NCBI GenBank assembly: GCA_036444215.1
Contig: JAZGAA010000006.1
Coordinates: forward strand, 1-59,942
Source: Minisyncoccota bacterium
Lineage (GTDB): Bacteria > Patescibacteriota > Minisyncoccia > UBA6257 > UBA9933
Length of the DNA: 59,942 nt
Direction: 5' to 3'
Position 1 is the stretch's first letter, and every line of letters starts with the position of its first letter. Below are positions 7,428 through 47,776 of the stretch, piece after piece. Made by a program: the position numbers and the translations under genes. The notes beneath the pieces are model-generated. The model was not told the origin of the DNA. It saw only the letters and a program-made list of their open reading frames with translations, and did no database searches.

Positions 7428-7431
7428 TATT

Positions 7432-25854: not shown

Positions 25855-26292
25855 CTACTTAATTATTTTTCTAATCTCTCGTTCTACTTCTCGTTTTTTT
25901 ATCAATTCTCGCTTATCTCTCTTTTTTCGGCTCTTTGCCAATCCAATTTCTATCTTAATTCTGCGATTCTTAGTATAAACCTTTAGAGGCACCAAAGTCA
26001 ATCCTTTTTCCTGGGTCCTGCCGATTAGATTTTTAATCTCAGATGTTTGAAGCAGCAGCCGGCGGGTCCTTTTGGAATCATAATCTTCGGGCATATTCTT
26101 TGGTTGATAAGGAGGTATGTCTGCATTAAGAAGCCAGGCCTGATTATCCCGGATAACAGCATAAGACCCGGCAAGATTTATTCTGCCGGTTTTTATGGAC
26201 TTAACTTCAAATCCTTTTAATTCAATCCCTGCCTCAAGCGTTTCTAAAATTTGATAGTCAAAATATGCGCGTTTATTGGTAGTAATAGCCAT
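25855..26292 (-). CDS. smpB: SsrA-binding protein SmpB
   Basis: NKRAYFDYQILETLEAGIELKGFEVKS and basic C-terminal tail. Confidence 0.95.
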   Translation of the reverse strand: MAITTNKRAYFDYQILETLEAGIELKGFEVKSIKTGRINLAGSYAVIRDNQAWLLNADIPPYQPKNMPEDYDSKRTRRLLLQTSEIKNLIGRTQEKGLTLVPLKVYTKNRRIKIEIGLAKSRKKRDKRELIKKREVEREIRKIIK

Positions 26293-26305
26293 TGTTTTTA
26301 GTATA

Positions 26306-27973
26306 ATGAATACAATGGTTAAAGTAAAAATTATTAATTATCTTAAAGAAGTTGTTAAAGAACCTGTGTCAATTGAAGTTTTCGTGCCGGATAATGAAAA
26401 ATTCGGGCATTATTCCACAAATGTCGCTTTGAAATTGGCAAAATTACGCAAGCAGAATTCGATGACTGTTGCTGAAGAGATTAAAAGCGTACTATCACGC
26501 GTAGTAGTAAAAGATTTTTTTAAAAAAATTGAGATTGCTCCTCCGGGATTTATAAATTTCTGGCTGTCAGAAAAAACTCTACAAGATAAAATAAAAGAAA
26601 TTTTGAAGAAAGAAAAGAAATACGGCCAACAACTAAAAGCTAAAAGCTCAAAGCTAAAAGCTATTAGCATTGAATTTATTTCCGCTAATCCTACTGGACC
26701 TTTGACTATTGGCAATGGCAGGGGAGGTTTTTTGGGTGATGCATTGGCAAATATTTTGAAATTTCAAGGAAATAAAGTAGTAAAGGAATATTATATTAAT
26801 GACGCTAAAGCAAGCACTCAGATTAGAGAATTAGGGAAAACGGCGGTTGGAATCGGTAAAAGCTACAAAACAAAAGATTTAGAATTAAAAATCAAAAAAT
26901 TAGGGCCAAAGAAAGCCAAAAATTACAGCGACGCTGGATATTTGCTTGCGAAAATAATCCAAGAAGATAACAAGAAGTTTATTGAAAATAAATTAAAAAT
27001 AAAATTTGACAAATGGTTCAGCGAAGAAAACCTGTATAAAAGTGGAGCTGTTGAAAAGTTGCTGGGAGAATTAAAAAAGAAAAATTTAATTTACAAAAAA
27101 GACGACGCTATATGGTTTAAATCAAAACAATTTGGCGATAACGAAGACAGGGTTTTGGTACGGCAACCCCGCGTAGCGGGGCAAGCAGGAGAACCGACAT
27201 ATTTTTTGCCGGATCTTGCTTATCATTTAAATAAATTCAAAATTCGTAAATTTAACAAAGTTATAGATATTTGGGGAGCTGACCACCATGGTTACAGTCC
27301 TCGGCTTAAAGCCGGTCTTAAAGCTTTTGGTATAGCTGATGAAAAACTCAAAATTATCATTAGCCAATTAGTCCGTTTAATTAAAAAAGGCAAAGAAACG
27401 AAAATGTCAAAAAGAAAAGGAGAGTATGTGAGCTTGGAGGAATTAATAGATGAGGTTGGTTTGGACGCGGCGCGATTTTTCTTTTTAATGTATTCGCCGA
27501 ATACTCATATGGATTTTGATTTGGATTTGGCAAAAGAGAAATCATTAGAGAACCCGGTTTATTATGTGCAATACGCTGCCGTAAGATGCGATAGCATACT
27601 CAAAAAACCCAAATTCCAAAGCCCAAATTCCAAACAAATTCCAAAGCCCAAATTCCAAAACCTAAAATTATTAAACACAAAAGAGGATTTAAATTTAATA
27701 CGGATGTTGGTGAGGTTTCCGGAAATTATTGAAGAAGCAGCGCAAAATTACAGCCCGCAAATTTTAGTGCGATATTCTTTGGATTTAGCGCGGCAATTCC
27801 ATAATTTTTACGAAAAAGAACACATCATCGCGGACCTGCGCGGACTTAACGCGGACCAATACAGACAAAGTATGGATTTTATGTTTGCGCGTTTGGCTTT
27901 AATTCAGGCAACATTAGTAATTTTTAAAAATACATTCAACCTTTTGGGCATCACATTGCCGAAGAAAATGTAG
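26306..27973 (+). CDS. argS: arginyl-tRNA synthetase
   Basis: SANPTGPLTIGNGRG (HIGH region), DHHGY, MSKRKG (KMSK). ATG at 26306 or 26315 preferred over the 26276 start that overlaps smpB. Carries four in-frame repeat insertions. Confidence 0.9.
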   Translation: MNTMVKVKIINYLKEVVKEPVSIEVFVPDNEKFGHYSTNVALKLAKLRKQNSMTVAEEIKSVLSRVVVKDFFKKIEIAPPGFINFWLSEKTLQDKIKEILKKEKKYGQQLKAKSSKLKAISIEFISANPTGPLTIGNGRGGFLGDALANILKFQGNKVVKEYYINDAKASTQIRELGKTAVGIGKSYKTKDLELKIKKLGPKKAKNYSDAGYLLAKIIQEDNKKFIENKLKIKFDKWFSEENLYKSGAVEKLLGELKKKNLIYKKDDAIWFKSKQFGDNEDRVLVRQPRVAGQAGEPTYFLPDLAYHLNKFKIRKFNKVIDIWGADHHGYSPRLKAGLKAFGIADEKLKIIISQLVRLIKKGKETKMSKRKGEYVSLEELIDEVGLDAARFFFLMYSPNTHMDFDLDLAKEKSLENPVYYVQYAAVRCDSILKKPKFQSPNSKQIPKPKFQNLKLLNTKEDLNLIRMLVRFPEIIEEAAQNYSPQILVRYSLDLARQFHNFYEKEHIIADLRGLNADQYRQSMDFMFARLALIQATLVIFKNTFNLLGITLPKKM

Positions 27974-28002: not shown

Positions 28003-31000
28003 ATGGAAGAAAAAATTTTAAAATTTTGGCAGGAAAATCAAATCTTTGAGAAATCCGTTGAGAAAGATGCGCCTCGCGGTGATTTTGTTTTTTATGACGG
28101 TCCGCCTTTTGCCACAGGAAGTCCTCATTACGGCCATATTTTGGCAAGCATTATAAAAGATGTCATTCCAAGATACCAAACAATGAAAGGTAAAAGAGTT
28201 CCGCGTAAATGGGGTTGGGATTGTCATGGTTTGCCAATTGAGAATTTAATTGAGAAAAATCTAAATCTTCAGAGCAAAAAAGACATTGAAGAATACGGAA
28301 TTGAAAAATTCAATAAAGCAGCTCAAGAAAGCGTTCTTCAATACGCTGATGAATGGAAAAAAATTATTTCAAGAATAGGAAGGTGGGTTGATATGGAAAG
28401 AGATTATAGAACAATGGATTGGAAATATACTGAATCGGTTTGGTGGGTTTTTAAAAAACTTTACGATAAAGGGCTTATTTACGAGGGATATAAATCAATG
28501 CATATTTGTCCGCGCTGCGAAACTACTTTATCTAACTTTGAGATTACACAGAATTATCAGGACATTAAAGATATATCAGCTACGGTTAAGTTTGAGCTGG
28601 AAGACGAGCCGGGTACTTTCATTCTGGCTTGGACAACTACGCCATGGACTCTGCTGGGGAACGTCGCTTTAGCTGTTAATCCTGATATAGAGTATAGAAA
28701 AGTTAAATCAGGAGAAAGTTTTTTTATCGTTGCCGAAAAACGATTAGCGGCATTATTTCCATTTAAAGGAGAAACTGTGCTACATAAATTTTTTAAAGGC
28801 AAAGAACTTGTTGGCAAAAAATACAAACCACTTTTTGATTATTACACAAAAGATAAAGATTTAGAGAATCGTGAGAACGGCTGGAAAATTTACAGCGCGG
28901 ATTTCGTAACAATTGAAGAAGGAACTGGCGTTGTTCATATTGCTCCTGCTTTTGGTGAAGATGATATGAATTTGGGGCAAAAAGAAAAATTGCCTTTTAT
29001 TCAGCATGTTGCAATGGATGGAAAATTTAAGAAGGAGGTTAGGGAATTCGTTGGCCTTTCAGTAAAGCCAAAATCTGAACATCAATCAACTGACGTAGAA
29101 ATTATTAAATACCTTGCTAAAAATAATAAACTTTTCTCTAAAGAATCAATAACTCATTCCTACCCGTTTTGCTGGCGGTGTGACACTCCGTTGTTAAATT
29201 ACGCAGCAAACTCATGGTTTGTAGAAGTAGATAAGATTAAAAAGAAACTAATAAAGAATAATAAGAAGATAAATTGGGTGCCATCGCATTTAAAATACGG
29301 TCGTTTTGGTAAATGGCTTGAAAACGCCCGCGACTGGGCTATTTCTCGTTCAAGGTATTGGGGCGCTCCTTTGTCTATTTGGAAATGTGAAGAATGTAAA
29401 AAAATAAAAACAATCGGCTCAATTAACGATTTAAAAAAAGAATCCAAAAAATCCAAAAACAGATATTTTGTAATACGTCATGGAGAATCAGAAAGTAATG
29501 CTCAAAATATTGTTAGTTCAAAATTAGAAACCAGCTCTAAACATCCGCTTACGGAAAAAGGAAAAAAAGAAGTCAAAGAAACAGCTAAAAAATTAAAAAG
29601 CGAAAATATTGATTTGATTTTTTCTTCTGATTTTACTCGTACTAAAGAAACTGCTGAAATTGCGGCAGATAATTTGGGTATTAGTAAGGATAAAATAATT
29701 TTTGATAAACGCCTTCGCGAAGTAAATACCGGCATTTTTGACGGCAAAAAACCTGAAGAATATAAAGCTTATTTTTCCTCTCTTGAAGAAAAATTTTTCA
29801 AAACTCCTCCTGAAGGCGAGAATTTAATGGAACTCAAGAATAGGGTGAGCGAATTTTTGTACGTTCTTGAGAGTAAATATTCAGATAAGAATATTTTAAT
29901 TATTAGCCATGAGTATCCGATTTGGCTTTTATTTGCCGGTGCTAACGGGTTCAATAGCAAAGAGTCAGTTGAAATCAGAAAAGACAAACCCGATTTTGTT
30001 AAAACAGGTGAAATAAGAAAATTAGATTTTGTTCCTTTACCGCATGATAAGAATTATGTTTTAGATTTACACAGGCCGCATATTGATAATATTGAGTTTC
30101 AATGTTCTTGCGGCGGAGCTATGAACCGCGTACCAGAAGTTTTTGACTGCTGGTTTGAGTCCGGTTCAATGCCTTACGGACAGGCGCATTATCCTTTTGA
30201 AAACAAAAAAGAATTTGAGAAAAATTTCCCGGCGGAATTTATTGCAGAAGGAATTGATCAAACAAGGGGTTGGTTTTATACATTACTTGTTCTTTCAACT
30301 GCTTTATTTAATAAACCAGCTTATAAAAACGTAATTGCGAATGGAATTATTTTGGCGGAAGATGGTCAAAAAATGAGTAAGCGTTTAAATAATTATCCGG
30401 ATCCAACAGAAATTATTAATAAATATGGAGCTGATGCGCTTCGTTATTATCTTCTTTCTTCACCGGCAGTGCGTGGCGAGAGTTTGAATTTTTCCGAAAA
30501 AGGAGTTGATGAAATTAATAAAAAAGTGGTTTCAAAATTAAGAAATGTTTTATCTTTTTATAAGATGTATGGTTTGGGACTAAAAACCGAAAACCAAAAA
30601 CTAAAAGCTAATAATGTTTTAGATAAATGGATTTTAGCGAAATTTAATATTTTAACAAAAGACGTTTCAGAAACACTTGATAATTATGAGTTAGACAGGG
30701 CAGTTAGGCCGATAGGGAATTTTGTTGATGATTTGTCTAATTGGTATGTGAGGCGGTCGCGAGAAAGGTTTAAGAGCGAAAGCCAAGATAAAGATAACGC
30801 TTCTGCGACGTTGAGTTATATTTTAATTGGGTTTTCTAAAATAATCGCGCCATTTATGCCGTTTGTTGCGGAGGAAATATACCAGGAATTTACAATAGAG
30901 AAAGGGAGCGTGCATTTAGAAGAGTGGCCTCAAGGCAAAGAAACATTAAAAGAAGACAAAAAGATTTTAGATGAAATGAAAGAGGCAAGAGAAAATATCG

Positions 31001-31449
31001 TATCTATTGCTATGGAGCAAAGGCAAAAAGCGGACATTGGAGTGAGGCAAGTGCTAAGCGTTTTTAATACAACATCTTCTATTACAAATACTGATATTCT
31101 CGAAACTGTTTTAAAAGAAATTAACGTAAAAGAAATAAAAACTAACCAAAAAGAAAATAAATTAGACATAATTATTACCCCTGAATTAAAAAATGAAGGC
31201 GTTGTTCGCGAATTTGTCCGCAAAGTTCAGGATTTGCGCAAAAAAGCCGGCTATCAACCAAAAGACAAAATTTATTTATGGATTGAAACCTTAAGCGAGA
31301 CAGAAAGCATATTAAACAAGAACATTGATAAATTCAAAAAAGATATTGGCGCTAAATCTATTGAGTTTAGGCGAACTGAAAAATTTGACGCAGAATTAGA
31401 AAGTAAAATTAACAGCGAAAAAATCTGGCTCGGAATTAAGAAAATATAA
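28003..31449 (+). CDS. ileS: isoleucyl-tRNA synthetase (type 2/eukaryote-like) with an inserted histidine-phosphatase domain
   Basis: PPFATGSPHYGH (HIGH), editing-domain WTTTPWTL, GIDQTRGWFYTL, KMSKRL. Residues ~485-685 carry RHGES...SSDFTRTKETA...ISHE histidine-phosphatase motifs. Confidence 0.92.
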   Translation: MEEKILKFWQENQIFEKSVEKDAPRGDFVFYDGPPFATGSPHYGHILASIIKDVIPRYQTMKGKRVPRKWGWDCHGLPIENLIEKNLNLQSKKDIEEYGIEKFNKAAQESVLQYADEWKKIISRIGRWVDMERDYRTMDWKYTESVWWVFKKLYDKGLIYEGYKSMHICPRCETTLSNFEITQNYQDIKDISATVKFELEDEPGTFILAWTTTPWTLLGNVALAVNPDIEYRKVKSGESFFIVAEKRLAALFPFKGETVLHKFFKGKELVGKKYKPLFDYYTKDKDLENRENGWKIYSADFVTIEEGTGVVHIAPAFGEDDMNLGQKEKLPFIQHVAMDGKFKKEVREFVGLSVKPKSEHQSTDVEIIKYLAKNNKLFSKESITHSYPFCWRCDTPLLNYAANSWFVEVDKIKKKLIKNNKKINWVPSHLKYGRFGKWLENARDWAISRSRYWGAPLSIWKCEECKKIKTIGSINDLKKESKKSKNRYFVIRHGESESNAQNIVSSKLETSSKHPLTEKGKKEVKETAKKLKSENIDLIFSSDFTRTKETAEIAADNLGISKDKIIFDKRLREVNTGIFDGKKPEEYKAYFSSLEEKFFKTPPEGENLMELKNRVSEFLYVLESKYSDKNILIISHEYPIWLLFAGANGFNSKESVEIRKDKPDFVKTGEIRKLDFVPLPHDKNYVLDLHRPHIDNIEFQCSCGGAMNRVPEVFDCWFESGSMPYGQAHYPFENKKEFEKNFPAEFIAEGIDQTRGWFYTLLVLSTALFNKPAYKNVIANGIILAEDGQKMSKRLNNYPDPTEIINKYGADALRYYLLSSPAVRGESLNFSEKGVDEINKKVVSKLRNVLSFYKMYGLGLKTENQKLKANNVLDKWILAKFNILTKDVSETLDNYELDRAVRPIGNFVDDLSNWYVRRSRERFKSESQDKDNASATLSYILIGFSKIIAPFMPFVAEEIYQEFTIEKGSVHLEEWPQGKETLKEDKKILDEMKEARENIVSIAMEQRQKADIGVRQVLSVFNTTSSITNTDILETVLKEINVKEIKTNQKENKLDIIITPELKNEGVVREFVRKVQDLRKKAGYQPKDKIYLWIETLSETESILNKNIDKFKKDIGAKSIEFRRTEKFDAELESKINSEKIWLGIKKI

Positions 31450-31454
31450 AATTT

Positions 31455-32369
31455 ATGGCTACATTATTAATTTCTCTTCCGGTATTTTTAATTATTTTAA
31501 GCGGGTGGTTGATGCGAAAGCTAAAAATAGTTGATGATGACTGGATTCATATTTTAAACAGCTTTGCTTATTATGTTTCTTTGCCGGCTTTGATTATAGT
31601 AAGTTTTTGGGAGATTAATTTCTTAAGCGCGGAATCTCGGCATTTTATTTTTTCAAGCATATTTACGATTATTTTATTTTCTTTTGTTGTTTTGCTTTTT
31701 CTTAGCTTTCTTAGAATCAGTAAAAATAAAAAAACAGCCATTTTTCTGTCAGCAACGGTTGGCAATACTATTTATATGGGCCTTCCGTTAATTGAGCTGG
31801 GTTTTGGCAAGGATTATCTATCCAGCGGAGCTTTAGTAGGAGTAATTTATTTGATTATCCCGCTTTTGATTTCAATTTTCGTGATTAGATATTGGCATGA
31901 TAAAGAGCATAAAGTTTTGCGGCATTTATTTAAATTTGCAAAAAATCCTTTAGTAATTTCTGTTTTTATCGGAGTGATTTTAAGTTTCGTCAGAATAGAA
32001 TTTTCTTTAATAGAAGGAATAAGAAAAGCATTAGTTATGTTTGGTTCTACTGCTTCGCCGATTGCGCTGTTTGCTTTAGGCGGATTTATTTACGGAAGAT
32101 TCTTGAAAAAGAATTTAAAACAAGTCCTTTTAATTTCTTTCTTAAAGATGGTTGTGGCCCCTTTAATTATATTTTTAATAGTTGCATATTTTTATAAAAC
32201 GAGCGATTTAAGGATTTTAGTCCTGCTCTCGTCTATGCCGGTTGCAATAACAACTTTTATAATTGCCGAGAAATTTAATTTAGATAAGGACTTAGTAGGA
32301 AATTCCATTATTGTTTCAACGATTATTTCATTTATAATTGCGCCGATTATAATTTTTATTTTTTCATAA
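31455..32369 (+). CDS. AEC (auxin efflux carrier) family transporter
   Basis: 304 aa, ~10 TM. N-terminal LISLPVFLIILSGW and C-terminal MPVAITTFIIAEKF patterns are typical of the AEC family. Confidence 0.7.
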   Translation: MATLLISLPVFLIILSGWLMRKLKIVDDDWIHILNSFAYYVSLPALIIVSFWEINFLSAESRHFIFSSIFTIILFSFVVLLFLSFLRISKNKKTAIFLSATVGNTIYMGLPLIELGFGKDYLSSGALVGVIYLIIPLLISIFVIRYWHDKEHKVLRHLFKFAKNPLVISVFIGVILSFVRIEFSLIEGIRKALVMFGSTASPIALFALGGFIYGRFLKKNLKQVLLISFLKMVVAPLIIFLIVAYFYKTSDLRILVLLSSMPVAITTFIIAEKFNLDKDLVGNSIIVSTIISFIIAPIIIFIFS

Positions 32370-32373
32370 AAAT

Positions 32374-33693
32374 ATGCACATAATTAACAAAAAAGAACTA
32401 TCAAGAACTCCTTTACGAGAAAAGGCGCTTTTGATTGCTGAAGCGGGTTATGACGCGATTGATATTGAGAAAGCAGTTAGTCAAAAAATAAAATTTCAGA
32501 ACAATAAGTTGTCTATCGCCAAGGGTATTACCGGAGAATATTTAGAATTTGATTTAAGTGATTATAAAAAAGTTTTTCTTATTGGTATTGGCAAAGGGTC
32601 TTCACTTGCCGTAATGACATTGGCAGGGATTTTAGCGCCTTTAGGTTCACGGTTTTCAGGCGGTATAGCCCTGGATATTAAAATCCCAAATAAATCCCAA
32701 AGCTCAAATTCCAAAATAGAATTTTTAACAGGCACGCATCCTATTCCGTCAAAACAAAATATTGAAGCCACTCAAAAAATTATTAAATTAGTAAAAAGCT
32801 TAGATGAAAACGATTTACTCATTGCTTTTATTTGCGGAGGCGGTTCAGCTTTGTTTTGCTGTTCAGAACAGGAATCAGAAGAATCAGCTTTGGCTATAAA
32901 ATTTTTAACAAAAGCCGGAGCTGATATTTTTGAATTAAATACAATTCGCAAGCATTTATCAGAGTGTAAGGGCGGCGGATTGGCAAAAACCGCTTATCCG
33001 GCAACTGTAATTTCTTTAATTGCGTCAGATGTTTGCGGCAATGATTTATCCATAATAGCTTCCGGTCCTACGGTTTTTGACGAAACTACTAAAAAGGATG
33101 CTGAAAAAGTTTTACAAAAATATGAATTAGATTTAAATCAATTTCATTTATCCGAGACCCCTAAAGACAAAAAATATTTTGAGAAAGTTAAAAACATTCT
33201 TTTTGTTTGTAATCAGGATGCGATTTCAGCAATGGTTGAAAAGGCGAAAGAAATCGGCTTTGAGCCGAGAATTTATTCTTTGGAATTGCGAGGTGAGGCG
33301 AAAGATGTGTTAATACCGATGATTAAAGAAGTGAAGTCCGGCGAGGCGATTTTGGCTGGCGGAGAAACAACGATTACCTTAGGCAGCGGACCAACAGGCA
33401 AAGGCGGACGAAATATGGAATCTGTTTTAGGCGCAATAACTAATTTTCAAGAGGTACTACCCCACGGGGTAGTAGCGCTTTCAATGGCAAGCGATGGCCG
33501 TGATAACACCGAGGCCGCTGGCGCGATTGTTGATGCTTCAACCCAAGAAAAAACAAAAGAATTGGGTTTGAGTCCAGAAGAATTTTTAGAAAACCATAGT
33601 TCGTTTAATTTTTTTGAAAAAACCGGAGATTTAATTTTTACCGACCAAAAGAGTTTCAACATAGCGGATTTGATGGTAATATTAAAGATATGA
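32374..33693 (+). CDS. glycerate 2-kinase (DUF4147/MOFRL family)
   Basis: GIGKGS, GGGSAL, KHLSECKGGGLA and GGETTITL...GKGGRNMES motifs. Confidence 0.75.
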   Translation: MHIINKKELSRTPLREKALLIAEAGYDAIDIEKAVSQKIKFQNNKLSIAKGITGEYLEFDLSDYKKVFLIGIGKGSSLAVMTLAGILAPLGSRFSGGIALDIKIPNKSQSSNSKIEFLTGTHPIPSKQNIEATQKIIKLVKSLDENDLLIAFICGGGSALFCCSEQESEESALAIKFLTKAGADIFELNTIRKHLSECKGGGLAKTAYPATVISLIASDVCGNDLSIIASGPTVFDETTKKDAEKVLQKYELDLNQFHLSETPKDKKYFEKVKNILFVCNQDAISAMVEKAKEIGFEPRIYSLELRGEAKDVLIPMIKEVKSGEAILAGGETTITLGSGPTGKGGRNMESVLGAITNFQEVLPHGVVALSMASDGRDNTEAAGAIVDASTQEKTKELGLSPEEFLENHSSFNFFEKTGDLIFTDQKSFNIADLMVILKI

Positions 33694-36095
33694 AGCCTTT
33701 TATCAAAAAATTTGAAGAAGTGAGTATGAAGAATGTTTCCGAGGTGGGCGGGAAGAACGCTTCGCTTGGCGAAATGATTCAGAATTTAGTTCCTAAAGGA
33801 ATTAATATTCCAAGCGGTTATGTTATTACGGCCAGCGCTTATCGTTATTTTCTTCAGAAAACCGATTTAAAAAAATTTATTAAGAAAACTATACAAGGAT
33901 TAGATACAAGAAATCTTCACGATTTGGCTAGGTGTGGAAAACTTATCCGCGAAGCAATTAAACAATCCGAATTTCCAAAGGATTTAACAAGAGCGATTAT
34001 TACTGCTCATCGCAGGGCTGAAAAGAAATACGGCAAGAATGCTGATTTTGCGGTTCGTTCCAGCGCCACGGCCGAGGATATGCCTGGAGCCAGTTTTGCT
34101 GGGCAGATGGAAACTTATCTAAACGTTCGCGGCGAGGAAAATATCTTAAAAGCCGTGCGAGCAGCCATGGCTTCTCTTTTTACTAATCGTGCTATTTCTT
34201 ATAGAAAGGATAAAGGATTTGACCACTTTAAGGTGGCGCTTTCAGTTGGCGTTCAGAAAATGGTGCGTTCGGATTTAAGCTGTTCAGGTGTTTTGTTTAC
34301 TTTAGATACAGAATCCGGTTTTCCTGATTTGGTTTTAATTAACGGTTCTTGGGGATTGGGCGAGATGATTGTTCAGGGCGAAGTAACTCCGGACGAATTT
34401 TTGGTTTTTAAAAAGACAGGCGCGATTATCGGCAAAGAGCTTGGAATGAAAAGGAGAAAGATGATTTACGGCAAAGGGAATAAGCCAACCAAAGTTATTT
34501 CTACCTCACAAAAAGAAAGAGAATCATTTATTTTATCTGATAATGAAATTTCGCAACTGGCCAAATGGGGAATGTTGGTTGAAGAGCATTATTCAAAGAG
34601 AAATAAAGGCAAGTGGACTCCGATGGATTTAGAATGGGCAAAAGACGGAAAAACCAAAGAGATGTTTGTTGTTCAGGCTCGCCCAGAGACAGTCCATGCT
34701 TTGCGGGATTTTTCAAAAATTAAGGAGTATAAGTTGGTAAGCACTAAACCTAATACCATAAACCCTAAACCCATCGTCATCGGCGCCTCTGTTGGCAGTA
34801 AAATTGCCGTTGGTAAGGCAAGGGTTATTTTAGATACAAAGAAGATTAAAGAATTTAAAGCAGGAGAAGTTTTAGTTACCGGTATGACAGATCCTGATTG
34901 GGAGCCGATAATGAAAATTGCTTCAGCAATTGTAACGGATAAAGGAGGTCGGACAAGTCACGCCGCAATAGTAAGTCGTGAACTCGGCATTCCCTGTATT
35001 GTTGGTTCGGAAACCGCCACTAAAAAAATTAAAACTGGCCAGACAATTACCGTTGATACTACCGGCAGTGATGGGTTTGTTTATGATGGCGCTTTGAAAT
35101 TTAAAATAACAGAACACAATGTTAAAAAAATACCAAAACCAAAGACAAAAATAATGATGAATATTGCCACACCAGAAACAGCTTTTGAAAAATCATTTTT
35201 ACCCAATGAAGGCGTAGGGTTGGCAAGAGAGGAATTTATTATTGCCAGCGATATTGGTATTCACCCAATGGCAATTATTGAATACCAAAAACTTAAAAAT
35301 TCAAAGCTAAAAGCACAAATAAATAAAAAAACTATTGGATGGAAAGATAAAAAGCAATTTTACATTGATAAACTCGCTTTTGGGATTGCGAAAATCGCAG
35401 CAGCTTTTTATCCTAAGCAGGTAATTGTTCGCTTTTCTGATTTTAAGACAAACGAATATCGTTCGCTGGTTGGTGGTGAAATTTACGAGCCAGTTGAAGA
35501 AAATCCAATGCTTGGTTGGAGAGGAGCTTCCAGATATTATCACCCTAATTTTGCGCCGGCATTTGTCTTAGAGGTTAAAGCAATTAAAAAAGTCCGTGAA
35601 AATATGGGATTAGATAATGTGGAAGTAATGATTCCATTTTGTAGGACAGTTGAAGAAGGTAAAAAGGTTTTGCAAATAATGGCAAAAAACGGACTAAAAA
35701 CTAAAAGCTCAAAGCTAAAAACTTACGTGATGTGCGAGATTCCTTCTAATGTGGTTTTAGCTGACGAATTTTTGAAAGTTTTTGATGGAATGAGTATTGG
35801 CTCAAACGATTTAACGCAATTAACCGTAGGAATTGACCGCGATGGCAATGAGCAAATCCGCAGTATTACTAATGAGAAAGACGAATCAGTTAAAAAACTA
35901 ATTGCAGAAGTTATTAAAAAATGCCTCGCTAAAAAGAAATATATCGGAATTTGCGGTCAGGCTCCATCCGACTTTCCGGAATTCGCTGAATTTTTGGTTG
36001 AGCACGGAATTGAAAGCATTTCCTTGAATCCAGACACAGTAGTTAAAACAACTCAAAAGATTTACCAAAAAGAGAAGAAATTACGAAAGAAATAG
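33690..36095 (+). CDS. ppsA: phosphoenolpyruvate synthase (pyruvate, water dikinase)
   Basis: VGGKNASLGEM, RSSATAEDMPGASFAGQ, phosphohistidine GGRTSHAAIVSRELGIP, C-terminal PEP-utilising IGSNDLTQ. Confidence 0.93.
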   Translation: MKPFIKKFEEVSMKNVSEVGGKNASLGEMIQNLVPKGINIPSGYVITASAYRYFLQKTDLKKFIKKTIQGLDTRNLHDLARCGKLIREAIKQSEFPKDLTRAIITAHRRAEKKYGKNADFAVRSSATAEDMPGASFAGQMETYLNVRGEENILKAVRAAMASLFTNRAISYRKDKGFDHFKVALSVGVQKMVRSDLSCSGVLFTLDTESGFPDLVLINGSWGLGEMIVQGEVTPDEFLVFKKTGAIIGKELGMKRRKMIYGKGNKPTKVISTSQKERESFILSDNEISQLAKWGMLVEEHYSKRNKGKWTPMDLEWAKDGKTKEMFVVQARPETVHALRDFSKIKEYKLVSTKPNTINPKPIVIGASVGSKIAVGKARVILDTKKIKEFKAGEVLVTGMTDPDWEPIMKIASAIVTDKGGRTSHAAIVSRELGIPCIVGSETATKKIKTGQTITVDTTGSDGFVYDGALKFKITEHNVKKIPKPKTKIMMNIATPETAFEKSFLPNEGVGLAREEFIIASDIGIHPMAIIEYQKLKNSKLKAQINKKTIGWKDKKQFYIDKLAFGIAKIAAAFYPKQVIVRFSDFKTNEYRSLVGGEIYEPVEENPMLGWRGASRYYHPNFAPAFVLEVKAIKKVRENMGLDNVEVMIPFCRTVEEGKKVLQIMAKNGLKTKSSKLKTYVMCEIPSNVVLADEFLKVFDGMSIGSNDLTQLTVGIDRDGNEQIRSITNEKDESVKKLIAEVIKKCLAKKKYIGICGQAPSDFPEFAEFLVEHGIESISLNPDTVVKTTQKIYQKEKKLRKK

Positions 36096-36134
36096 TTTAA
36101 ATTAACTGTTCTTTAATTTTTTTATAAAGGAGGC

Positions 36135-36485
36135 ATGTATATGGAGTATACGAGAATTAAACAGAAGAATATCAGAGCCAGAGGGATTAAATTTTTTATT
36201 AAAAATGGAAGGAAAGAAATTGCCAGGGCATATCTCTACATTTTACAGAACGACCTTCGCGAAGAACCGTTCGGATTAATGGAAGACGTATTTGTCAATA
36301 AGAGCTTCAGAGAAAGAGGAATAGGAACTAAACTTATTCAAAAAGTGATTAAAGCAGCAAAGAAAAACGGTTGTTATAAATTAATTTCCACCAGCAGGCA
36401 TTCGAGGCCGGAGGTTCATAAATTATACAAAAGATTAGGGTTTAAAAATCATGGAATTGAGTTCAGAATGGATTTAAGTGATTAA
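36135..36485 (+). CDS. GNAT family N-acetyltransferase
   Basis: FRERGIGTKLIQKVIKAAKKNGCYKL acetyl-CoA binding motif. Confidence 0.7.
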   Translation: MYMEYTRIKQKNIRARGIKFFIKNGRKEIARAYLYILQNDLREEPFGLMEDVFVNKSFRERGIGTKLIQKVIKAAKKNGCYKLISTSRHSRPEVHKLYKRLGFKNHGIEFRMDLSD

Positions 36486-36559
36486 ATTAAAAGGAAATGG
36501 GTCAAAAGATTGACCCATTTTTTATAAAATTCTTGAAATTATGTTATTATAAAAAGGAA

Positions 36560-37798
36560 ATGAAAATTACAGACGTTAATATTAAAATCATTTCAGATTC
36601 TCGCGGCAAAGAAACATTGGAAGCGGAATTAAAAACCGCGGATATTTCTGTATCCGCAAGCGTGCCAGCCGGCAAAAGCACTGGAACGCATGAGGCGTTT
36701 GTTTTAGAGCCAAAAAACGCTCTAAAAAAATTTGAAGAAATAAAAAGCAAAGTTTTAGGACAGGATTTTAACAAACAGGAAGATTTTGATAATTTTTTAA
36801 TTTCTTTAGATGGCACTTCTAATAAACAAAATCTTGGAGGTAATTTGATTTTAGCTTTGTCTTTGTCTTGGGCAAGATTGAAAGCAAAAAATGAAGGGAA
36901 AGAATTATTTCAATATATAAATAAGGAACTAGGAACTAGTAATCAGGAAATAGGAACGCCGAGGCCGGTTTTTAACGTTATTAACGGTGGAGTGCACGCT
37001 ACCCATCCAAAGTCAAAGTTAGAATTTCAGGAATTCCAAGTAATACCAAGCGTAGAAGATTTTGGCATTGCTTTAAGTGTTGGCAGGGAATTTTACCGCA
37101 AACTTCAAACATTGTTGGAAAATAAATTTGGCAAGGAAAATATTTCTTTGGGTGATGAAGCCGGCTTTTCAGCTCCATTCAAAAATAATGAAGAAGCAAT
37201 TGAAGTTTTGGCTGAATTAATAGATAAGCATAGTTATCCTTTAAGGATTGGATTGGATATAGCAGCTTCACAATTTTACAAATCAGGCGGATTTCTTAGA
37301 GAATCAGGGTATGTTGTTGACGGCAAGAAACACTCAGTAGAAGAACTAAAAGATTTATATTTAAAATTGATTGAAACGTATAATATTTTATCAATTGAAG
37401 ACCCTTTTTATGAGGAATCATTTGATTCATTCGCTTCGCTCACCGCGGACTCACGCGGACTGGACGCGGATAGACGCGGACTATTAGTGATAACGGACGA
37501 TTTAACAACCACTAATCCAGAACGTTTAAAAACAGCAATTAATAAAAAATCCGGCAACGCAATTTTAATAAAATTAAATCAGATAGGAACATTAACAGAA
37601 ACTCTAAAAGTTGTTAAACTGGCTTATGAGAATAACTGGCAGGCAATAGTTTCGCACAGGAGCGGCGAAACAATGGATGATTTTATTGCTGATTTGGCTG
37701 TTGGTATTAACGCATGGGGCATTAAAGCCGGCGCGCCGGCAAAACCGGAAAGATTAATAAAATACGAACGAGTTTTGGAGATAGTTGATAAAAAATAA
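36560..37798 (+). CDS. eno: enolase (divergent)
   Basis: IISDSRGKETLE, SVPAGKSTGTHEA, NVINGG, GDEAGF, SIEDPF, DDLTTTNP, IKLNQIGTLTE, SHRSGET. Start at the ATG preceded by aaaaagga. Confidence 0.9.
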   Translation: MKITDVNIKIISDSRGKETLEAELKTADISVSASVPAGKSTGTHEAFVLEPKNALKKFEEIKSKVLGQDFNKQEDFDNFLISLDGTSNKQNLGGNLILALSLSWARLKAKNEGKELFQYINKELGTSNQEIGTPRPVFNVINGGVHATHPKSKLEFQEFQVIPSVEDFGIALSVGREFYRKLQTLLENKFGKENISLGDEAGFSAPFKNNEEAIEVLAELIDKHSYPLRIGLDIAASQFYKSGGFLRESGYVVDGKKHSVEELKDLYLKLIETYNILSIEDPFYEESFDSFASLTADSRGLDADRRGLLVITDDLTTTNPERLKTAINKKSGNAILIKLNQIGTLTETLKVVKLAYENNWQAIVSHRSGETMDDFIADLAVGINAWGIKAGAPAKPERLIKYERVLEIVDKK

Positions 37799-43081: not shown

Positions 43082-43917
43082 TAATAATACAGATATGAAA
43101 ATGTTGATGAAAATATCCGGCGGCTGAAAAACGGCGAATTTTCTATGTTCGCAATTTCAGTCCGCTAAACAGCGGATTTTTTGTTTTCTGAATGGATAGT
43201 TTTTTGACAAATACGTGAATCGCTCGAATTTCAAACAAATGATAACGAATTTCAAACGAATATTTTTATTCGTTTTACATTCATTTTAATTCGTTAATTA
43301 TTTGGGCGAAAGACGCGTTATAAAACAATTATTCGAGTCCTCGAATCCTAAATATGGATTTAAGAGACAAAATTTTTTTAAGGGCGTATGGTGGATGCCT
43401 TGACATCAAATGACGATGAAGGACGTGGCGTGGCTGCGATAAGCTTCGGGGAGGTGCTTAGCAACTTTTGATCCGGAGATTTCCGAATGGGGAAACCTAA
43501 TTACGTAAACCGTAATTGGCTCTATTTTTAAAAATAGAGCAGTATATCCGCTGAAGTGAAACATCTCAGTAAGCGGAAGAAAAGAGAAAAATTTTTATTC
43601 CCTAAGTAGCGGCGAGTGAAAAGGGAGGAGCCCAAACCGAGCACATAATTTTTTATATGCTCGGGGTTGTAAGAATTTCACGCTACTTTATTAATCACAG
43701 AGTTCCACCTTTAAGGGATTCTGTGATTTATGAAGAAAGGAAAGGTTATAAAATTATTTGTTAGCTGAACCTGCTGGAAAGCAGGACCAGAGGAGGTGAT
43801 AGTCCTGTAGGCGAAAACGAATAATCCTTTTAGTGGATTATCTTGAGTACCTCGATGACAGAATACTTCGAGGGAATCATCCGGCACTATCCGGAAAGGC
43901 TAAATACATTTGATGAT

Positions 43918-43956
<39 letters not shown>

Positions 43957-44126
43957 GGCCGGCGAGGCCGTTGAAATAGAACCTGAAACCATATGCTTAC
44001 AAGGAGACGGAGCCCGCAAGGGTGACGTCGTGCCTATTGAAGAATGAGCCAACGAGTTTATGTATATCGCTAGTTTAAATCCTACGGGATGAAAGCGTAG
44101 GGAAACCGAGTGTTAAAAGCGCGTAT

Positions 44127-44295
44127 GCCAGTGCTTCGCACTGGAAATTCCAAATTCCAAATCTCAAATCACAAATAAATCTCAAATCCCAATTTTCAAA
44201 ATTCCAAACACGTTTTGGTCATTTGAATTTTGGTTATTGATGCTTGTTTGTTATTTGGTGCTTGTTATTTGGTGCTTCCAATGCGCAGTATTGGT
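44127..44295 (+). repeat. 169-nt hairpin insertion at the 23S helix-25 position (IVS-like), copy A
   Basis: Interrupts ...GAGTGTTAAAAGCGCGTAT | TGGCGGTATGTGTAAGACCCGAA. Terminal mini-hairpins gccagtgcttcgcactgg and ccaatgcgcagtattgg. A/C-rich arm faces a G/T-rich arm. Confidence 0.85.
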
Positions 44296-44810
44296 TGGCG
44301 GTATGTGTAAGACCCGAAGCCAAGCGAGCTTGCCCTGGCCAGGATGAACTTCGACGAAAGTCTAAGGGAGGTCCGCACCAGTAGATCGTTCAAAATCTTT
44401 GGATGAGCTGGGGTAAGAAGTGAAAAGCTAATCGAGCTTGGTAATAGCTGGTTCTCTCCGAAATAGTTTTAGGACTAGCGTTTAGAAAAAACCTTTATGG
44501 GGTAGAGCTACTGGTTGAGAAGTAAAGGGGGAAACCTCGGCTTTTCAGTCAAACTCCGAATACATAAAGGATTGTCTAAGCAGTTAGACCATGGGGGCTA
44601 AGCTCCATTGGTCAAAAGGGAAACAGCCCTGATCGTCGTCTAAGGTCCCTAAATATTTGCTAAGTGTTAAAAAGGTAGTAATTCGCCATAGACAGATAGG
44701 AGGTTGGCTTAGAGGTAGCCATCCTTTAAAAAGTGTGTAACAACTTACTATTCGATGGCGGGTTGCGCCGAAAATTTAGCGGGGCTAAGCAAATTACCGA
44801 AGACACGAAT

Positions 44811-44979
44811 GCCAGTGCTTCGCACTGGAAATTCCAAATTCCAAATCTCAAATCACAAATAAATCTCAAATCCCAATTTTCAAAATTCCAAACACGTTTT
44901 GGTCATTTGAATTTTGGTCATTGGTGCTTATTTGTTATTTGGTGCTTGTGATTTGGTGCTTCCAATGCGCAGCATTGGT
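44811..44979 (+). repeat. 169-nt hairpin insertion at the 23S helix-45 position (IVS-like), copy B
   Basis: Interrupts ...GGGGCTAAGCAAATTACCGAAGACACGAAT | GTGGTAGGAGAGC. Differs from copy A at about five positions, all in the 3' arm. Confidence 0.85.
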
Positions 44980-45731
44980 GTGGTAGGAGAGCATTTCAAT
45001 CGCGCTGAAGTGCGACCCGCGAGGGCGCATGGAGCGTTTGGAAGAGAAAATGTTGGTATGAGTAACCGCAAAGCCGACGAGAAGTCGGCTCCCCGAAAAT
45101 CCAAGGTTTCCTCCGCAACGGAAATCGACGGAGGGTTAGGCGATCCTAAGGCAATGGCGAAAGCCGGAGCCGATGGACAGCTGGTTAATATTCCAGCCCG
45201 CCGGGCATAGTTCGATGGAGTGACGGAGAAAAAAAGATTAAGCATCTTAATGGTTTGGTGTTATTGGTTATTAGAATTGCTGTTTAGGTAAATCCGGACA
45301 GCTGCTTTAAATGGCGGGATTCGCAAACCGATAAAACTTCAGTTCGCTGAAGAATTTAATTGAAGAGTCTTCCGAGAAAAACTTCTAAGATTTCCTATGT
45401 TCGGCTTCGTACCGGAAACCGACACAGGTGGATGAGGCGAGGAGCCTCAGGGGAACGAGTGAGTCCTCGTTAAGGAACTCGGCAAAAAAGCGGGTGTAAC
45501 TTCGGGATAAACCCTGCCGCCTAAGTTTTTGTTTTACAAAAATTTTGGCGGCCGCAGCGAAAGTATCCCTGGCGACTGTTTACCAAAAACACAGCTCCCT
45601 GCGAACTCGTAAGAGGATGTATAGGGGGTGACGCCTGACCGATGCGAGAAGGTTAACGGCGGCGGTTTTTTTAAAAGCAATTTTGAGAAAGCTGACTGCC
45701 CGAAGCCCTCGTCAATGTCAGCGATAACTAT

Positions 45732-45997
45732 AAGTAACGATTGTAGTTGTAAAATTTGGCTATATGCTGGAAAGCCCTTAGGGCTGATAAAACCAAAACA
45801 GTAATCTGAAAAGATAAGCTGACGGTTTAAAAATTTATCAGATTGGGTAATCAGCAGGAAAGACTCCTAAGGTAAATCTAAGGAGAATCCTCAGAGACTA
45901 TACGCCAAATCTTATTAAAAATAAGAATGATATAGTCCGAACTCTATGGCGACATAGAGAGTTGTCTAAATTAAACTAGACAGAATAACACATAATG
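45732..45997 (+). mobile_element. group I intron in 23S at E. coli-equivalent position L1917 (H69 loop), ORF-less
   Basis: Exon junction ...GATAACTAT | AATCGTTCTAAGGTAGCG restores the H69 context. 5' exon ends in T and the intron ends in G. Core motifs TATATGCTGGAAA, AATCAGCAGGAAA, CCTCAGAGACTATACG, GATATAGTCCGAAC. Confidence 0.8.
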
Positions 45998-46336
45998 AAT
46001 CGTTCTAAGGTAGCGCATTTCCTTTCCAGGTAAGTTCTGGAGCGCACGAAAGGCGTAACGACTGGGGAACTGTCTCAACGAGGAGCTCGGTGAAAATGCA
46101 ATTCCCGTGAAGATGCGGGATACCTGCAGCAAGACGAAAAGACCCCGGGAGCTTTACTGTAGCTTGATATTGGTTTTAGGGTTTTAATGCGTAGCGTAGT
46201 GGGGAGGCTTTGAAACTTTACTTTCGGGTAGAGTGGAGCCGCCAATGAAACACCCATCTTTAAAATTTTAAAATCTAATCTGAACGGCAAAAACGTTCGG
46301 AGACAGTGTCTGGCGGGCAGTTTATATGGGGCGTAT

Positions 46337-46662
46337 TCCTTAATGTAATTTGCACCTCCGTGCAATTACGAGGGGGACCTATTGCCGTGAGGCGATACGG
46401 AAAAACTATCTATATGCTGGAACATCCGCGAGTATCTTGGAGTACTTGTTCTAAATATTATTAAAGGACAGTAAAAATCTTTCAAGTGATGCGGACAATC
46501 AGCAGGAAACCAAATTCAATATATTGAGAGTGGGATCCTCAGAGACTACACGATAGCAACTTTTTATAAAAAAGAGTTGATAATATAGTCCGAACTGCGT
46601 AGCGATGCGCAGAGGATTGCATTATTAGTAATGTAATCTACCTAATAAAAATATAAATTAGG
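46337..46662 (+). mobile_element. group I intron in 23S just 3' of the H80 P-loop hairpin, ORF-less; paralog of the L1917 intron
   Basis: Interrupts ATATGGGGCGTAT | ...GCCTAAAAAGTAACGGAGGAG. Same core motifs as the L1917 intron (TATATGCTGGAAC, AATCAGCAGGAAA, CCTCAGAGACTACACG, AATATAGTCCGAAC). Boundaries +/-10 nt. Confidence 0.7.
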
Positions 46663-46861
46663 TTAACATTTTGCCTAAAAAGTAACGGAGGAGTTTATTA
46701 AGGTTGGCTTAGCCCGGATGGAAATCGGGCTGGACGCGTAAAGGCAAAAGCCAGCTTAACGGCAAGGCTGACAAGCCGCGCCGGTGCGAAAGCAGAACTT
46801 AGTGACCCGACGGTTCTTTATAGAAAGGCCGGAGACAACGGATAAAAGCTACCCCGGGGAT

Positions 46862-47141
46862 GAAGCCTGAAATAAGGCTTTGTTGTCCTCCTCGCAGTAA
46901 TGCGAGGTAATAAATGCGACTTATAACGGTGGAATCAAAACTGGTCTTTCCCAGAAATGGGTTTTAGAGTTTTGACAATACCGTGGGAAGTCGCTCGTCC
47001 AAAAAAATGGGCGAGTTGACCCTGTAACGACTTAATCCAAGAGGATTGGATGGTAGTTTTTAAACTATCATAATACGTCGCGCCCACTGAGATTTTATTT
47101 TAGTGGGAAAAGATATAGTCTAATACATTAAAAATGTATCG
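46862..47141 (+). mobile_element. group I intron in 23S at L2449, ORF-less, different subtype
   Basis: Exons ...CCCCGGGGAT | AACAGGCTGG are exactly contiguous in E. coli (GGGGAU|AACAGG). Intron ends in G. P7-like AGATATAGTC. Confidence 0.8.
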
Positions 47142-47253
47142 AACAGGCTGGTGAAGTCCGAGAGTTCACATCGACGACTTCGCTCGGCACCTCGATGTCG
47201 GCTCACCACATCCCGGGGGTGGAGAAGCTCCCAAGGGTTTGGCTGTTCGCCAA

Positions 47254-47297
<44 letters not shown>

Positions 47298-47626
47298 TGG
47301 TCTCTATCTGCTGTAGGCGTTGACGCTTGAGGGAAGTTGACCCTTGTACGAGAGGATCAGGTTGAACGAACCTCTGGTCTACCGGCTTTGCCACCAGGTG
47401 AAGTGCCGGGTAGCTATGTTCGGAAGGGATAAGCACTGAAAGCATCTAAGTACGAAGCCCCTCCCAAGATTAAGCGTCTTAGATTCCTGGAAGACTACCA
47501 GGTAAATAGGCTTTAGGTGTAAGCGCAGTAATGCGTTTAGCCGAGAAGTACTAATAAATCGTATTTTTTTATCTCTAAATTCATTTTAGGGTTCGAGGAG
47601 TCGAATAATTGTGTTAAATTTATTTT

Positions 47627-47732
47627 TGCCGGTGTTTTACTCAAATATGAACCACCTCTTTCCATTCCGAACAGAGAAGTGAAAATATTTGAGCCCGATG
47701 ATACTTTAAAGGGAAAGTAGGGTACGCCGGCA
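47627..47732 (+). rRNA. rrf: 5S rRNA
   Basis: GCCGGTG...CCATTCCGAACAGAGAAGTGAAA...GTAGGGTACGCCGGC; terminal helix pairs. Confidence 0.88.
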
Positions 47733-47776
47733 TTTTTTATTTGTGAATAACTGAAGTTTTGCTATAATAAAATTTA

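Follow-up and report, generated by a model that had tools for sequence, protein, structure and literature searches.

We analysed a 59,942-nucleotide stretch of DNA from a Minisyncoccota bacterium (contig JAZGAA010000006.1, assembly GCA_036444215.1), a Wolfebacteria-like member of the Patescibacteria with a small genome; hereafter this stretch is the window, in which the gene for isoleucyl-tRNA synthetase (IleRS), ileS, carries a histidine-phosphatase domain within the part that encodes the catalytic core. Judged by the conservation of both parts, the product appears to be a genuine, conserved two-enzyme protein, made of a complete type-2 IleRS and a whole, catalytically equipped histidine phosphatase of branch 1. 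In sister lineages, the phosphatase has a counterpart gene linked to ileS on its upstream side, from which the inserted domain derives and with which it alternates. As a joint reading, we lean slightly towards an active phosphomonoesterase, most likely with a small-molecule substrate, which would be a constitutive partner of IleRS that has become fixed to it covalently.

The phosphatase domain and its site in IleRS

The features of the gene are listed below in the order in which they are read.

28003..31449, + strand: ileS, type-2 isoleucyl-tRNA synthetase with internal phosphatase domain; single open reading frame (ORF), 1148 aa
28126..28137, + strand: HIGH signature, H42-Y-G-H45; motif located, H45 invariant
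28630..28965, + strand: editing motifs of connective peptide 1 (CP1), WTTTPWT (aa 210-216) and GTGVVHIAPAFGEDD (aa 307-321)
29386..29397, + strand: first half of the zinc knuckle of connective peptide 3 (CP3), C462-E-E-C465
29422..29457, + strand: N-terminal linker INDLKKESKKSK, aa 474-485
29458..30024, + strand: histidine-phosphatase domain (His_Phos_1, PGAM-like), aa 486-674; from Pfam, residue invariance, AlphaFold2 (AF2) and Foldseek
29476-29481, + strand: R492 and H493, the nucleophile His; the RHG motif R492-H493-G494 occupies 29476-29484
29638-29640, + strand: R546, second Arg, catalytic residue
29719-29721, + strand: E573, acidic proton donor, catalytic residue
29908-29910, + strand: H636, second His (ISHE), catalytic residue
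30025..30060, + strand: fusion-specific C-terminal linker DFVPLPHDKNYV, aa 675-686, with the motif aromatic-x-x-hydrophobic-P-x-N/D
30064..30111, + strand: IleRS resumes, with DLHRPHID and the second zinc-knuckle half C701-S-C703
30370..30384, + strand: KMSKS signature, here KMSKR, aa 790-794
30622..31446, + strand: anticodon-binding domain and C-terminal DUF5915 tRNA-binding region (Pfam)

The ileS frame is unbroken from its ATG at 28003 to the TAA at 31447-31449. Pfam resolved the 1148-aa protein into tRNA-synt_1 in two pieces (the first at aa 4-486), Anticodon_1, DUF5915 and His_Phos_1, and the ileS equivalog model TIGR00392 matched it with 901.5 bits against a cut-off of 621.4, in two stretches with the break at residue ~488. 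The class I signatures and the CP1 editing motifs are present (HYGH, KMSKR, WTTTPWT at 28630-28650, H312 and D321), and the editing residues T211-213, H312 and D321 were kept across all groups compared. Assignment to type 2 came from a phmmer search of the PDB, in which IleRS2 and eukaryotic enzymes matched at E ~1e-231 compared with ~1e-93 for type-1 enzymes (1ffy, 8c9e); Foldseek likewise ranked type-2 over type-1 IleRS, and DUF5915 is found at the C-terminus. The full-length AF2 model, built on a 119-sequence alignment, had a mean predicted local distance difference test score (pLDDT) of 91.1 and a predicted template modelling score (pTM) of 0.84, and the best PDB folds for its IleRS body were IleRS2 8c8v and yeast 8wnd (Foldseek, target template modelling (TM) scores 0.79-0.87). 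No T-box or other leader was found by an Rfam scan near ileS.

The inserted segment was recognised as PF00300 (His_Phos_1) both in the full protein, at aa 489-654 (E 3.2e-32, 112 bits against a gathering cut-off of 21.7), and as the segment 29455-30060 by itself (E 1e-33, 117 bits). An earlier note on this DNA, made from its letters, had claimed a complete histidine-phosphatase domain in the catalytic core of IleRS, a continuous frame, intact HIGH, KMSKS and editing motifs and a full set of phosphatase motifs; all of these were borne out by the coordinates above, and PF00300, the family it expected, was obtained far above threshold. The catalytic motifs of branch 1 are all there (R492-H493-G494, R546, E573 and H636), and N499 also belongs to the catalytic set. 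R492, H493, N499, R546, E573 and H636 were conserved at 97-100% in 121 close homologs, and in a divergent GTDB set of 30 fused and 52 standalone sequences R492, H493, R546 and H636 were conserved at 100%, with E or D at the position of E573. Mean pairwise identity within the same proteins was 0.52 for the insert, 0.57 for the anticodon-binding domain and 0.45 for the C-terminal domain. Since the catalytic residues are conserved and the identity of the insert lies between those of two IleRS domains, the phosphatase appears to be under purifying selection, and the same conservation in the 121 close and 30 distant fused homologs speaks for a functional two-enzyme protein and not a pseudogene, as the note had proposed. 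Base composition and GC content of the insert were like those of the rest of ileS.

Structure prediction gave the same picture. The phosphatase domain had a pLDDT of 93-98 inside the full-length model and of 92.4 when modelled alone, and Foldseek recognised a PGAM-type alpha/beta fold with probability 1.00 and TM scores of 0.71-0.77 to 4ij5 (PspA), 1h2e (PhoE) and 6nru. The closest solved relatives by sequence were PspA phosphoserine phosphatase, PhoE, TIGAR, a riboflavin-pathway histidine phosphatase and CobC, and the same phosphatases stood on top of the fold matches, with the cofactor-dependent phosphoglycerate mutases (dPGMs) lower. None of the NCBIfam equivalog models was reached: PspA gave 77 bits against a cut-off of 350, CobC 80 against 163, GpmB 71 against 261 and SixA 36.9 against 74.5. 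Because all equivalog cut-offs were widely missed, no substrate can be transferred to the inserted domain from these models. Taken together, sequence and predicted fold suggest a complete and apparently active histidine phosphatase. The phage family phrog_12933, which has no function assignment, also matched the insert (E 1e-23) and the standalone phosphatase described below (E 1e-21); phages thus carry relatives of this phosphatase as well.

One alternative, that the insert is the dPGM of the organism and completes a lower-glycolysis cluster downstream of ileS, had some initial appeal, as dPGM_arch was the best NCBIfam match by E-value, glycerate kinase, phosphoenolpyruvate synthase (PPS)/PPDK and enolase genes lie at 32374-37798, and no other phosphoglycerate mutase gene was seen in the 60-kb window. 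We nevertheless consider it extremely improbable. The dPGM_arch match reached 92 bits against a cut-off of 225, and the remaining dPGM models stayed below 50 bits against cut-offs above 300. The substrate-binding motifs of dPGMs are ERHYG and, after the second His, HGN; both are absent from the insert, which reads REVNTG and SHEYP at these sites. Furthermore, its ~190 aa correspond to the size of the phosphatase branch, and phosphatase fold matches outrank dPGMs. The glycolysis neighbours are specific to the lineage of the window, being found in 0-1 of 53 loci, so that gene context no longer speaks for a glycolytic role, and that role was dropped. By its sequence and modelled fold, we therefore place the domain in the small-phosphatase branch and not among the phosphoglycerate mutases.

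The site of insertion was determined by alignment to solved enzymes. In the phmmer search of the PDB, query residues 2-480 aligned with human IARS1 16-491 and those from 686 onward with IARS1 496 onward, and with Priestia megaterium IleRS2 (8c8v) the break spans only 478 to 485; ~205 extra residues stand where solved IleRS have a very short linker. The insert is flanked by W-K-C462-E-E-C465...IGS before and DLHRPHID...C701-S-C703 after, and the four knuckle cysteines were kept in all fused and insert-less relatives compared. CP3 corresponds to Candida IleRS residues 473-534 and joins CP2 to the second Rossmann half, and the zinc motif of Thermus thermophilus IleRS matches the CP3 zinc motif here (PMC7191050). 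Within the CP3 zinc knuckle, the phosphatase separates the CxxC half from the CxC half and so occupies the knuckle tip. The four-cysteine metal site would clamp the base of the insertion and shield the Rossmann/catalytic fold. The alignment confirmed the insertion point given in the earlier note and the absence of an equivalent segment from solved IleRS, and a Foldseek search of the PDB with the full model returned no entry with an equivalent insertion. The linker from IGS to DLHRP has ~10-12 residues in the nearest insert-less relatives, fewer than the 15-25 that the note had assumed. Both linkers of the window protein had a pLDDT >90 in the AF2 model. The C-terminal linker motif, which spans 10-12 residues, was found in all fused groups and was absent from 51 of 52 standalone phosphatases, which terminate in ...TGExRxL.

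Distribution and origin of the fused form

The fusion, treated in the earlier note as a possibly isolated oddity, turned out to be a clade-wide architecture that has been public since 2012-2015 (EKD23672.1, KKR88577.1 / UniRef100_A0A0G0XLL8 and KKR12178.1). A search with the full-length protein gave 120 best matches, all of which combine IleRS domains with PF00300 (57-74% identity, 1119-1352 aa) and which their sources name Wolfebacteria, Niyogibacteria, Yonathbacteria, Lloydbacteria, Parcubacteria or Minisyncoccota. Widespread occurrence was likewise evident in an exhaustive search of 50%-identity cluster representatives, where ~95 of the 150 best aligned unbroken through the insert. The view of the fusion as rare, based on an insert-only search that gave 2 fused fragments, was overturned by the full-length search. 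Databases name the fused proteins only isoleucine-tRNA ligase or 'class I tRNA ligase family protein'; NCBI uses the latter for many of them, leaving the phosphatase unflagged, which is a point for annotation. One relative of 1352 aa (P0125) has ~180 extra residues near query 235-240, within the CP1 editing region, and further long relatives with matches in multiple stretches were P0358 (1859 aa), P0271 (1468 aa), P0260 (1419 aa) and P0340 (1379 aa).

Could the fused ORF be an assembly chimera or a decaying pseudogene? The observation in its favour came from the closest syntenic contig, ENA ERZ1286166 contig_258 (L001), in which ileS is broken into three ORFs. In that contig, however, many other genes are split, including SIS, DUF4147, MOFRL, PPDK_N and IF3 (each in two), which is typical of frameshift-rich long-read assemblies, so that its broken genes look like products of such an assembly and not like true pseudogenes. 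In a near-identical protein (P0001), a single frame spans the phosphatase region together with its two insertion junctions. The same junctions occur in well over 100 independent contigs from many samples and databases, which excludes a mis-join. There are more than 100 independent intact ORFs, and the catalytic residues of both enzymes are conserved. The artefact explanation is refuted for practical purposes.

The closest non-fused relatives of the insert are ~190-aa Patescibacteria proteins with 40-50% identity to it. In the first two genomic contexts examined, an insert-less ileS follows the standalone gene on the same strand at a distance of 1.2-1.6 kb, and one of the two shows the order argS-phosphatase-...-ileS, which mirrors the argS-ileS order of the window:

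26276..27973, + strand: argS; 29-nt gap to ileS, the slot of the standalone phosphatase in operon-type relatives

We retrieved 80 GTDB species-representative loci by phosphatase family. The fused architecture was found in 29 of them, a standalone gene directly upstream of ileS in 37 (gaps of -98 to +70 nt, mostly -4 to +21) and a standalone gene 0.6-2.1 kb upstream of ileS in 10, leaving 4 loci without ileS in the flank, one of which ends at a contig end, so that 3 are informative (L047, L066 and L082). Two copies of the phosphatase occurred in no locus, and the two arrangements are mutually exclusive within the ±10 kb examined. In operon forms where only -4 to +21 nt separate them, the two genes may well be translationally coupled. 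In fused loci, argS lies within 150 nt of ileS in 16 of 22 cases; in operon loci, argS is followed by the phosphatase at a median of 20 nt, and within 150 nt in 40 of 46. The slot between argS and ileS is thus usually empty when the phosphatase is fused and filled by it in operon loci, as would be expected if the operon partner upstream of ileS had been moved into the gene. A plausible path is that the phosphatase-ileS unit was duplicated in tandem and then lost two stretches in frame, which would have left ileS(N)-phosphatase-ileS(C).

A second sample of 6 loci, seeded on insert-less IleRS and therefore unbiased as to the phosphatase, had the phosphatase upstream in 5. In one of these (L088) the phosphatase-ileS pair was kept although argS had moved out of the block, and in two of the five positive loci small genes stand between phosphatase and ileS. 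The cargo found between the two genes consists of an RHH/ParE-type toxin-antitoxin pair and an HD_3 protein in L002 (8652-9819), of DUF5674 and two unknown genes in L087 (1925-3495), and of a NUDIX hydrolase in L089 (3049-3495).

The IleRS bodies fall into three subtypes. The first is eukaryote-like, with PHYGH and KMSK(R/K)-LKNYPDP, and holds the window protein together with operon forms, e.g., those of Staskawiczbacteria. The second, with PGIHH and KMSKSKGNVVDP, is a large fused clade with some operon forms nested within it. The third (clade B), with PMGVHH and EMHKS, consists of operon forms only. The insertion therefore occurs in two IleRS subtypes (HYGH/KMSKR and GIHH/KMSKS) at the identical site. 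A neighbour-joining tree of the IleRS body (200 bootstraps, 889 columns, 68 taxa) recovered the fused IleRS as monophyletic in 0 of 200 bootstraps, joined the group of the window with the Staskawiczbacteria operon forms in 195 of 200, and placed operon forms inside the large fused clade in 200 of 200. For some inserts, the nearest neighbours were standalone proteins at 62-67% identity, compared with ~45% among inserts. The polyphyly of the IleRS body, combined with these identities, indicates that operon and inserted states would have repeatedly interconverted or been exchanged.

Two side observations concern the signatures of these enzymes. While the window IleRS has the canonical HYGH, a swapped GxHH (PGIHH/PMGVHH) is found in all clade-B enzymes and in most fused relatives besides the window protein, for example at loci L056, L072, L028 and L059 (positions 42/44). 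PDB entry 8c8w is titled a mupirocin hyper-resistant HIGH-motif mutant of IleRS2, and the natural variation of the HIGH motif may bear on antibiotic sensitivity. Clade-B IleRS (L006, L007, L027, L033 and L037), ~37% identical to the window enzyme, read EEMHKSKGN at the KMSKS position, and the first Lys and the Ser of KMSKS were replaced in 20 of 20 clade-B sequences.

What the inserted phosphatase may do

In the reading that we favour, the inserted domain would hydrolyse phosphomonoesters by way of a phospho-H493 intermediate, with a substrate that, judged by its relatives, is most likely a small molecule and not RNA or protein. The free-standing phosphatase of sister lineages would already work beside IleRS, probably docked near CP3, and covalent insertion would only fix a 1:1 partnership of phosphatase and IleRS.

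Several observations weigh against this reading and against the origin by repeated exchange that goes with it. At the locus L090, the sixth of the sample seeded on insert-less IleRS and from a Staskawiczbacteria-type genome (GCA_964479955.1, CAYZNK010000001.1), argS adjoins an insert-less ileS (992 aa) and there is no phosphatase gene within 3.5 kb; together with the three phosphatase loci without ileS nearby, this shows that the partnership has exceptions. Strong synteny extends over the entire block smpB-argS-(phosphatase)-ileS-recO, with argS kept in 47 of 50 loci, smpB in 45 of 50, IF3 in 42 of 50 and recO in 43 of 53. Since the adjacency of phosphatase and ileS is only slightly more conserved than that, adjacency alone is no proof of coupling, and after this synteny control we no longer counted it as sufficient evidence of function. 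As for the origin, the trees are neighbour-joining only, and the tree of the phosphatase domain, built from 180 columns, is star-like; it was set aside as an arbiter between single and multiple origins. The C-terminal linker motif is common to both fused subtypes, a hint either of strong structural constraint or of the module having arisen once; a single origin is hard to square with the polyphyly seen for the IleRS body.

Much of this would also be expected if the domain were a passenger, i.e., a housekeeping small-molecule phosphatase unlinked to isoleucylation and captured in the one IleRS loop that tolerates ~200 residues. Its adjacency to ileS would then follow from the rigid synteny of streamlined Patescibacteria genomes, and the two activities would be independent. 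The conservation of argS, smpB, IF3 and recO, nearly equal to that of the phosphatase-ileS pair, agrees with this explanation, as do the missing gene at L090, the genes away from ileS at L047, L066 and L082, and the intruders tolerated between phosphatase and ileS (toxin-antitoxin module, HD_3, NUDIX and DUF5674). The nearest relatives are all metabolite phosphatases, and a 'bifunctional RNase H/acid phosphatase' model was the third-best NCBIfam match; in Mycobacterium tuberculosis Rv2228c, an enzyme of that kind, the two activities reportedly run independently. However, ~95 clusters at the 50%-identity level retain an in-frame insertion within the catalytic core of an enzyme that is essential, and this insertion was apparently gained or exchanged more than once, in the identical loop of two IleRS subtypes. 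The operon gaps that suggest translational coupling, and the pair retained at L088 despite the relocation of argS, also speak against a mere passenger. The passenger explanation is the main rival; we regard it as credible, though less likely than the favoured reading.

A stronger form of the favoured partnership, which we consider unlikely, is that the phosphatase takes a mechanistic part in isoleucylation; docked on CP3, it would remove phosphate from something that IleRS must handle. Candidate targets would be a blocked 3' end of tRNA-Ile, a phosphosite on IleRS, or a phosphorylated by-product, inhibitor or precursor related to Ile-AMP. If this were true, the protein would be an aminoacyl-tRNA synthetase (aaRS) with a third catalytic site, for dephosphorylation beside synthesis and editing, which sister lineages would supply in trans by a translationally coupled partner; it would represent a new accessory activity of aaRS, and the two arrangements would form a natural Rosetta-stone pair for finding it.

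The idea that the domain heals the 3' end of tRNA, by removing a 3'-phosphate, a 2',3'-cyclic phosphate or a toxin-derived 3'-pyrophosphate to permit the charging of tRNA-Ile, was raised in the earlier note, which pointed to RtcB and archease; both are indeed encoded in the window, in the following cluster:

6966-7427: archease, overlaps RtcB
7417-8811: RtcB, overlapped by archease
9219-10622: beta-CASP/RMMBL RNase, followed by a SLOG/LDcluster4 protein

Toxins are known to block aminoacylation by (pyro)phosphorylation of tRNA 3' ends, and the enzyme whose catalytic domain bears the phosphatase binds tRNA. The archease-RtcB-RNase cluster is RNA-repair-like. It lies 20 kb from ileS, however, no link between the archease-RtcB cluster and the phosphatase was found, and an enzyme of this sort would strip off the 3'-phosphate on which RtcB depends. 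Among the sequence and fold matches there was no histidine phosphatase acting on RNA ends, the nearest relatives being small-molecule phosphatases; the papers on IleRS structure that we consulted describe no contact of CP3 with tRNA; and it would be left unexplained why IleRS alone carries the domain. The insert also had no match to the PADLOC defence families. Action on tRNA 3' ends is thus unsupported, and we judge it quite improbable.

By analogy with HipA-type kinases, which target class I synthetases, the domain might instead act in cis as a protein phosphatase on IleRS, for example on S792 of the KMSKS loop, as a built-in reset or anti-toxin. The histidine-phosphatase superfamily does include the protein phosphatases SixA, Sts-1 and PGAM5, S792 is conserved in 25 of 26 fused forms, and such a role would account for the strict specificity for IleRS and the tethering to its catalytic domain. 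Nevertheless, clade-B operon IleRS, with EMHKS and no serine at that position, still keep the phosphatase partner; the SixA model stayed far under its cut-off; and the conserved neighbourhood contains no kinase. The PADLOC defence and toxin-antitoxin models matched neither the insert nor the standalone phosphatase P0044, and with the standalone P0058 they gave a chance-level match only (E 0.0045, 13.8 bits, Type I specificity subunit). For want of a meaningful PADLOC match, and with clade B keeping the partner in the absence of the serine, the defence or anti-toxin idea was rejected, and a cis-acting phosphatase seems very improbable to us.

Among these explanations, we thus prefer the small-molecule phosphatase that is a constitutive partner of IleRS. 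To our knowledge, aaRS are among the most conserved enzymes, and bacterial aaRS rarely gain unrelated catalytic domains within the catalytic core. The presence of a whole second enzyme in a zinc-clamped loop of IleRS, across a large and diverse set of Patescibacteria, would therefore be surprising to specialists in aaRS. The fused and standalone forms offer a natural experiment in the conversion of an operon neighbour into an internal domain, and the pair is experimentally tractable. The phosphatase is also a strong candidate for an unrecognised IleRS-associated activity in reduced genomes that keep few dispensable genes. If the two activities are coupled, a new type of aaRS accessory function would be at hand; if they are uncoupled, the protein would be a clean case of domain capture at a permissive site, and its architecture a marker for the lineages that carry it.

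Surrounding genes and comparison with known systems

After ileS, the window continues at 31455-37798 with a Mem_trans transporter, a glycerate kinase (DUF4147/MOFRL), PEP synthase/PPDK and enolase, an arrangement common to the syntenic contig L001 and to almost none of the 53 other loci. A second class Ia synthetase of 704 aa (tRNA-synt_1 and Anticodon_1), encoded at 48786-50900, is 25-29% identical to IleRS and short for a ValRS or LeuRS. A 23S rRNA gene was located in the region 43366-47733; it spans 4210 nt, contains two group I introns (45659-45959 and 46348-46612) and is followed by a 5S rRNA gene. This intron-bearing gene is the reason why 43-48 kb is poor in ORFs. No 16S rRNA gene was seen in the window.

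In its IleRS part, the window protein is the same overall enzyme as the known type-2 IleRS of P. megaterium (IleRS2, 8c8v), T. thermophilus (1ile), yeast and the human cytosol, which represent the eukaryote-like, mupirocin-resistant type. It shares with them HIGH, KMSKS, CP1 editing, CP2, CP3, the anticodon-binding domain and the long C-terminal region (DUF5915). The difference lies at the tip of the CP3 knuckle, where solved type-2 IleRS have nothing and the window protein has an independent enzyme domain of ~200 residues.

The domain itself has the fold of the branch-1 phosphatases PspA (4ij5), PhoE/YhfR (1h2e and 1ebb), CobC (6nru and 6e4b; alpha-ribazole phosphatase), GpgP Rv2419c (4qih), a riboflavin-pathway histidine phosphatase (9mmh) and TIGAR (3dcy). 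It is like the small branch-1 phosphatases in size (~190-210 aa) and in its R-H...R...E...H set. It differs from them in identity, which is only 21-27%, in being embedded in or operon-linked to ileS, and in having SHE(Y)P after the second His in place of the usual SHG.

Two further systems join a second activity to an enzyme of this kind. In the RNase H/acid phosphatase family (Rv2228c type, NF005567), which matched the insert at E 1.5e-22, a nucleic-acid-processing enzyme is likewise joined to His_Phos_1. That fusion is end-to-end, with RNase H N-terminal and the phosphatase C-terminal, whereas the phosphatase of ileS is inserted in the catalytic core, and with 80 bits against a cut-off of 326 the insert is not a member of NF005567. 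NF040702, an IleRS with an N-acetyltransferase domain, is a precedent for a second catalytic domain on IleRS. It adds a GNAT domain and not a phosphatase, and the window protein scored 323 bits against its cut-off of 1999, outside that family.

We found no description of an IleRS-phosphatase fusion in the searchable full-text literature, including a paper on the aaRS of the candidate phyla radiation, with subscription-only papers outside this coverage. While both parent families are well known, their combination, the insertion site and the alternation between operon and insertion appear to be undescribed. Within the synthetases, the CP1 editing domain and the leucine-specific domain of LeuRS are examples of catalytic or regulatory modules inserted in loops of the Rossmann fold, a fold that tolerates large insertions. 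These are ancient and universal connective-peptide modules whose targets are aminoacyl-tRNA or adenylate. The insert of ileS, in contrast, is a phosphoryl-transfer enzyme that a single bacterial phylum has recruited from a gene next to ileS.

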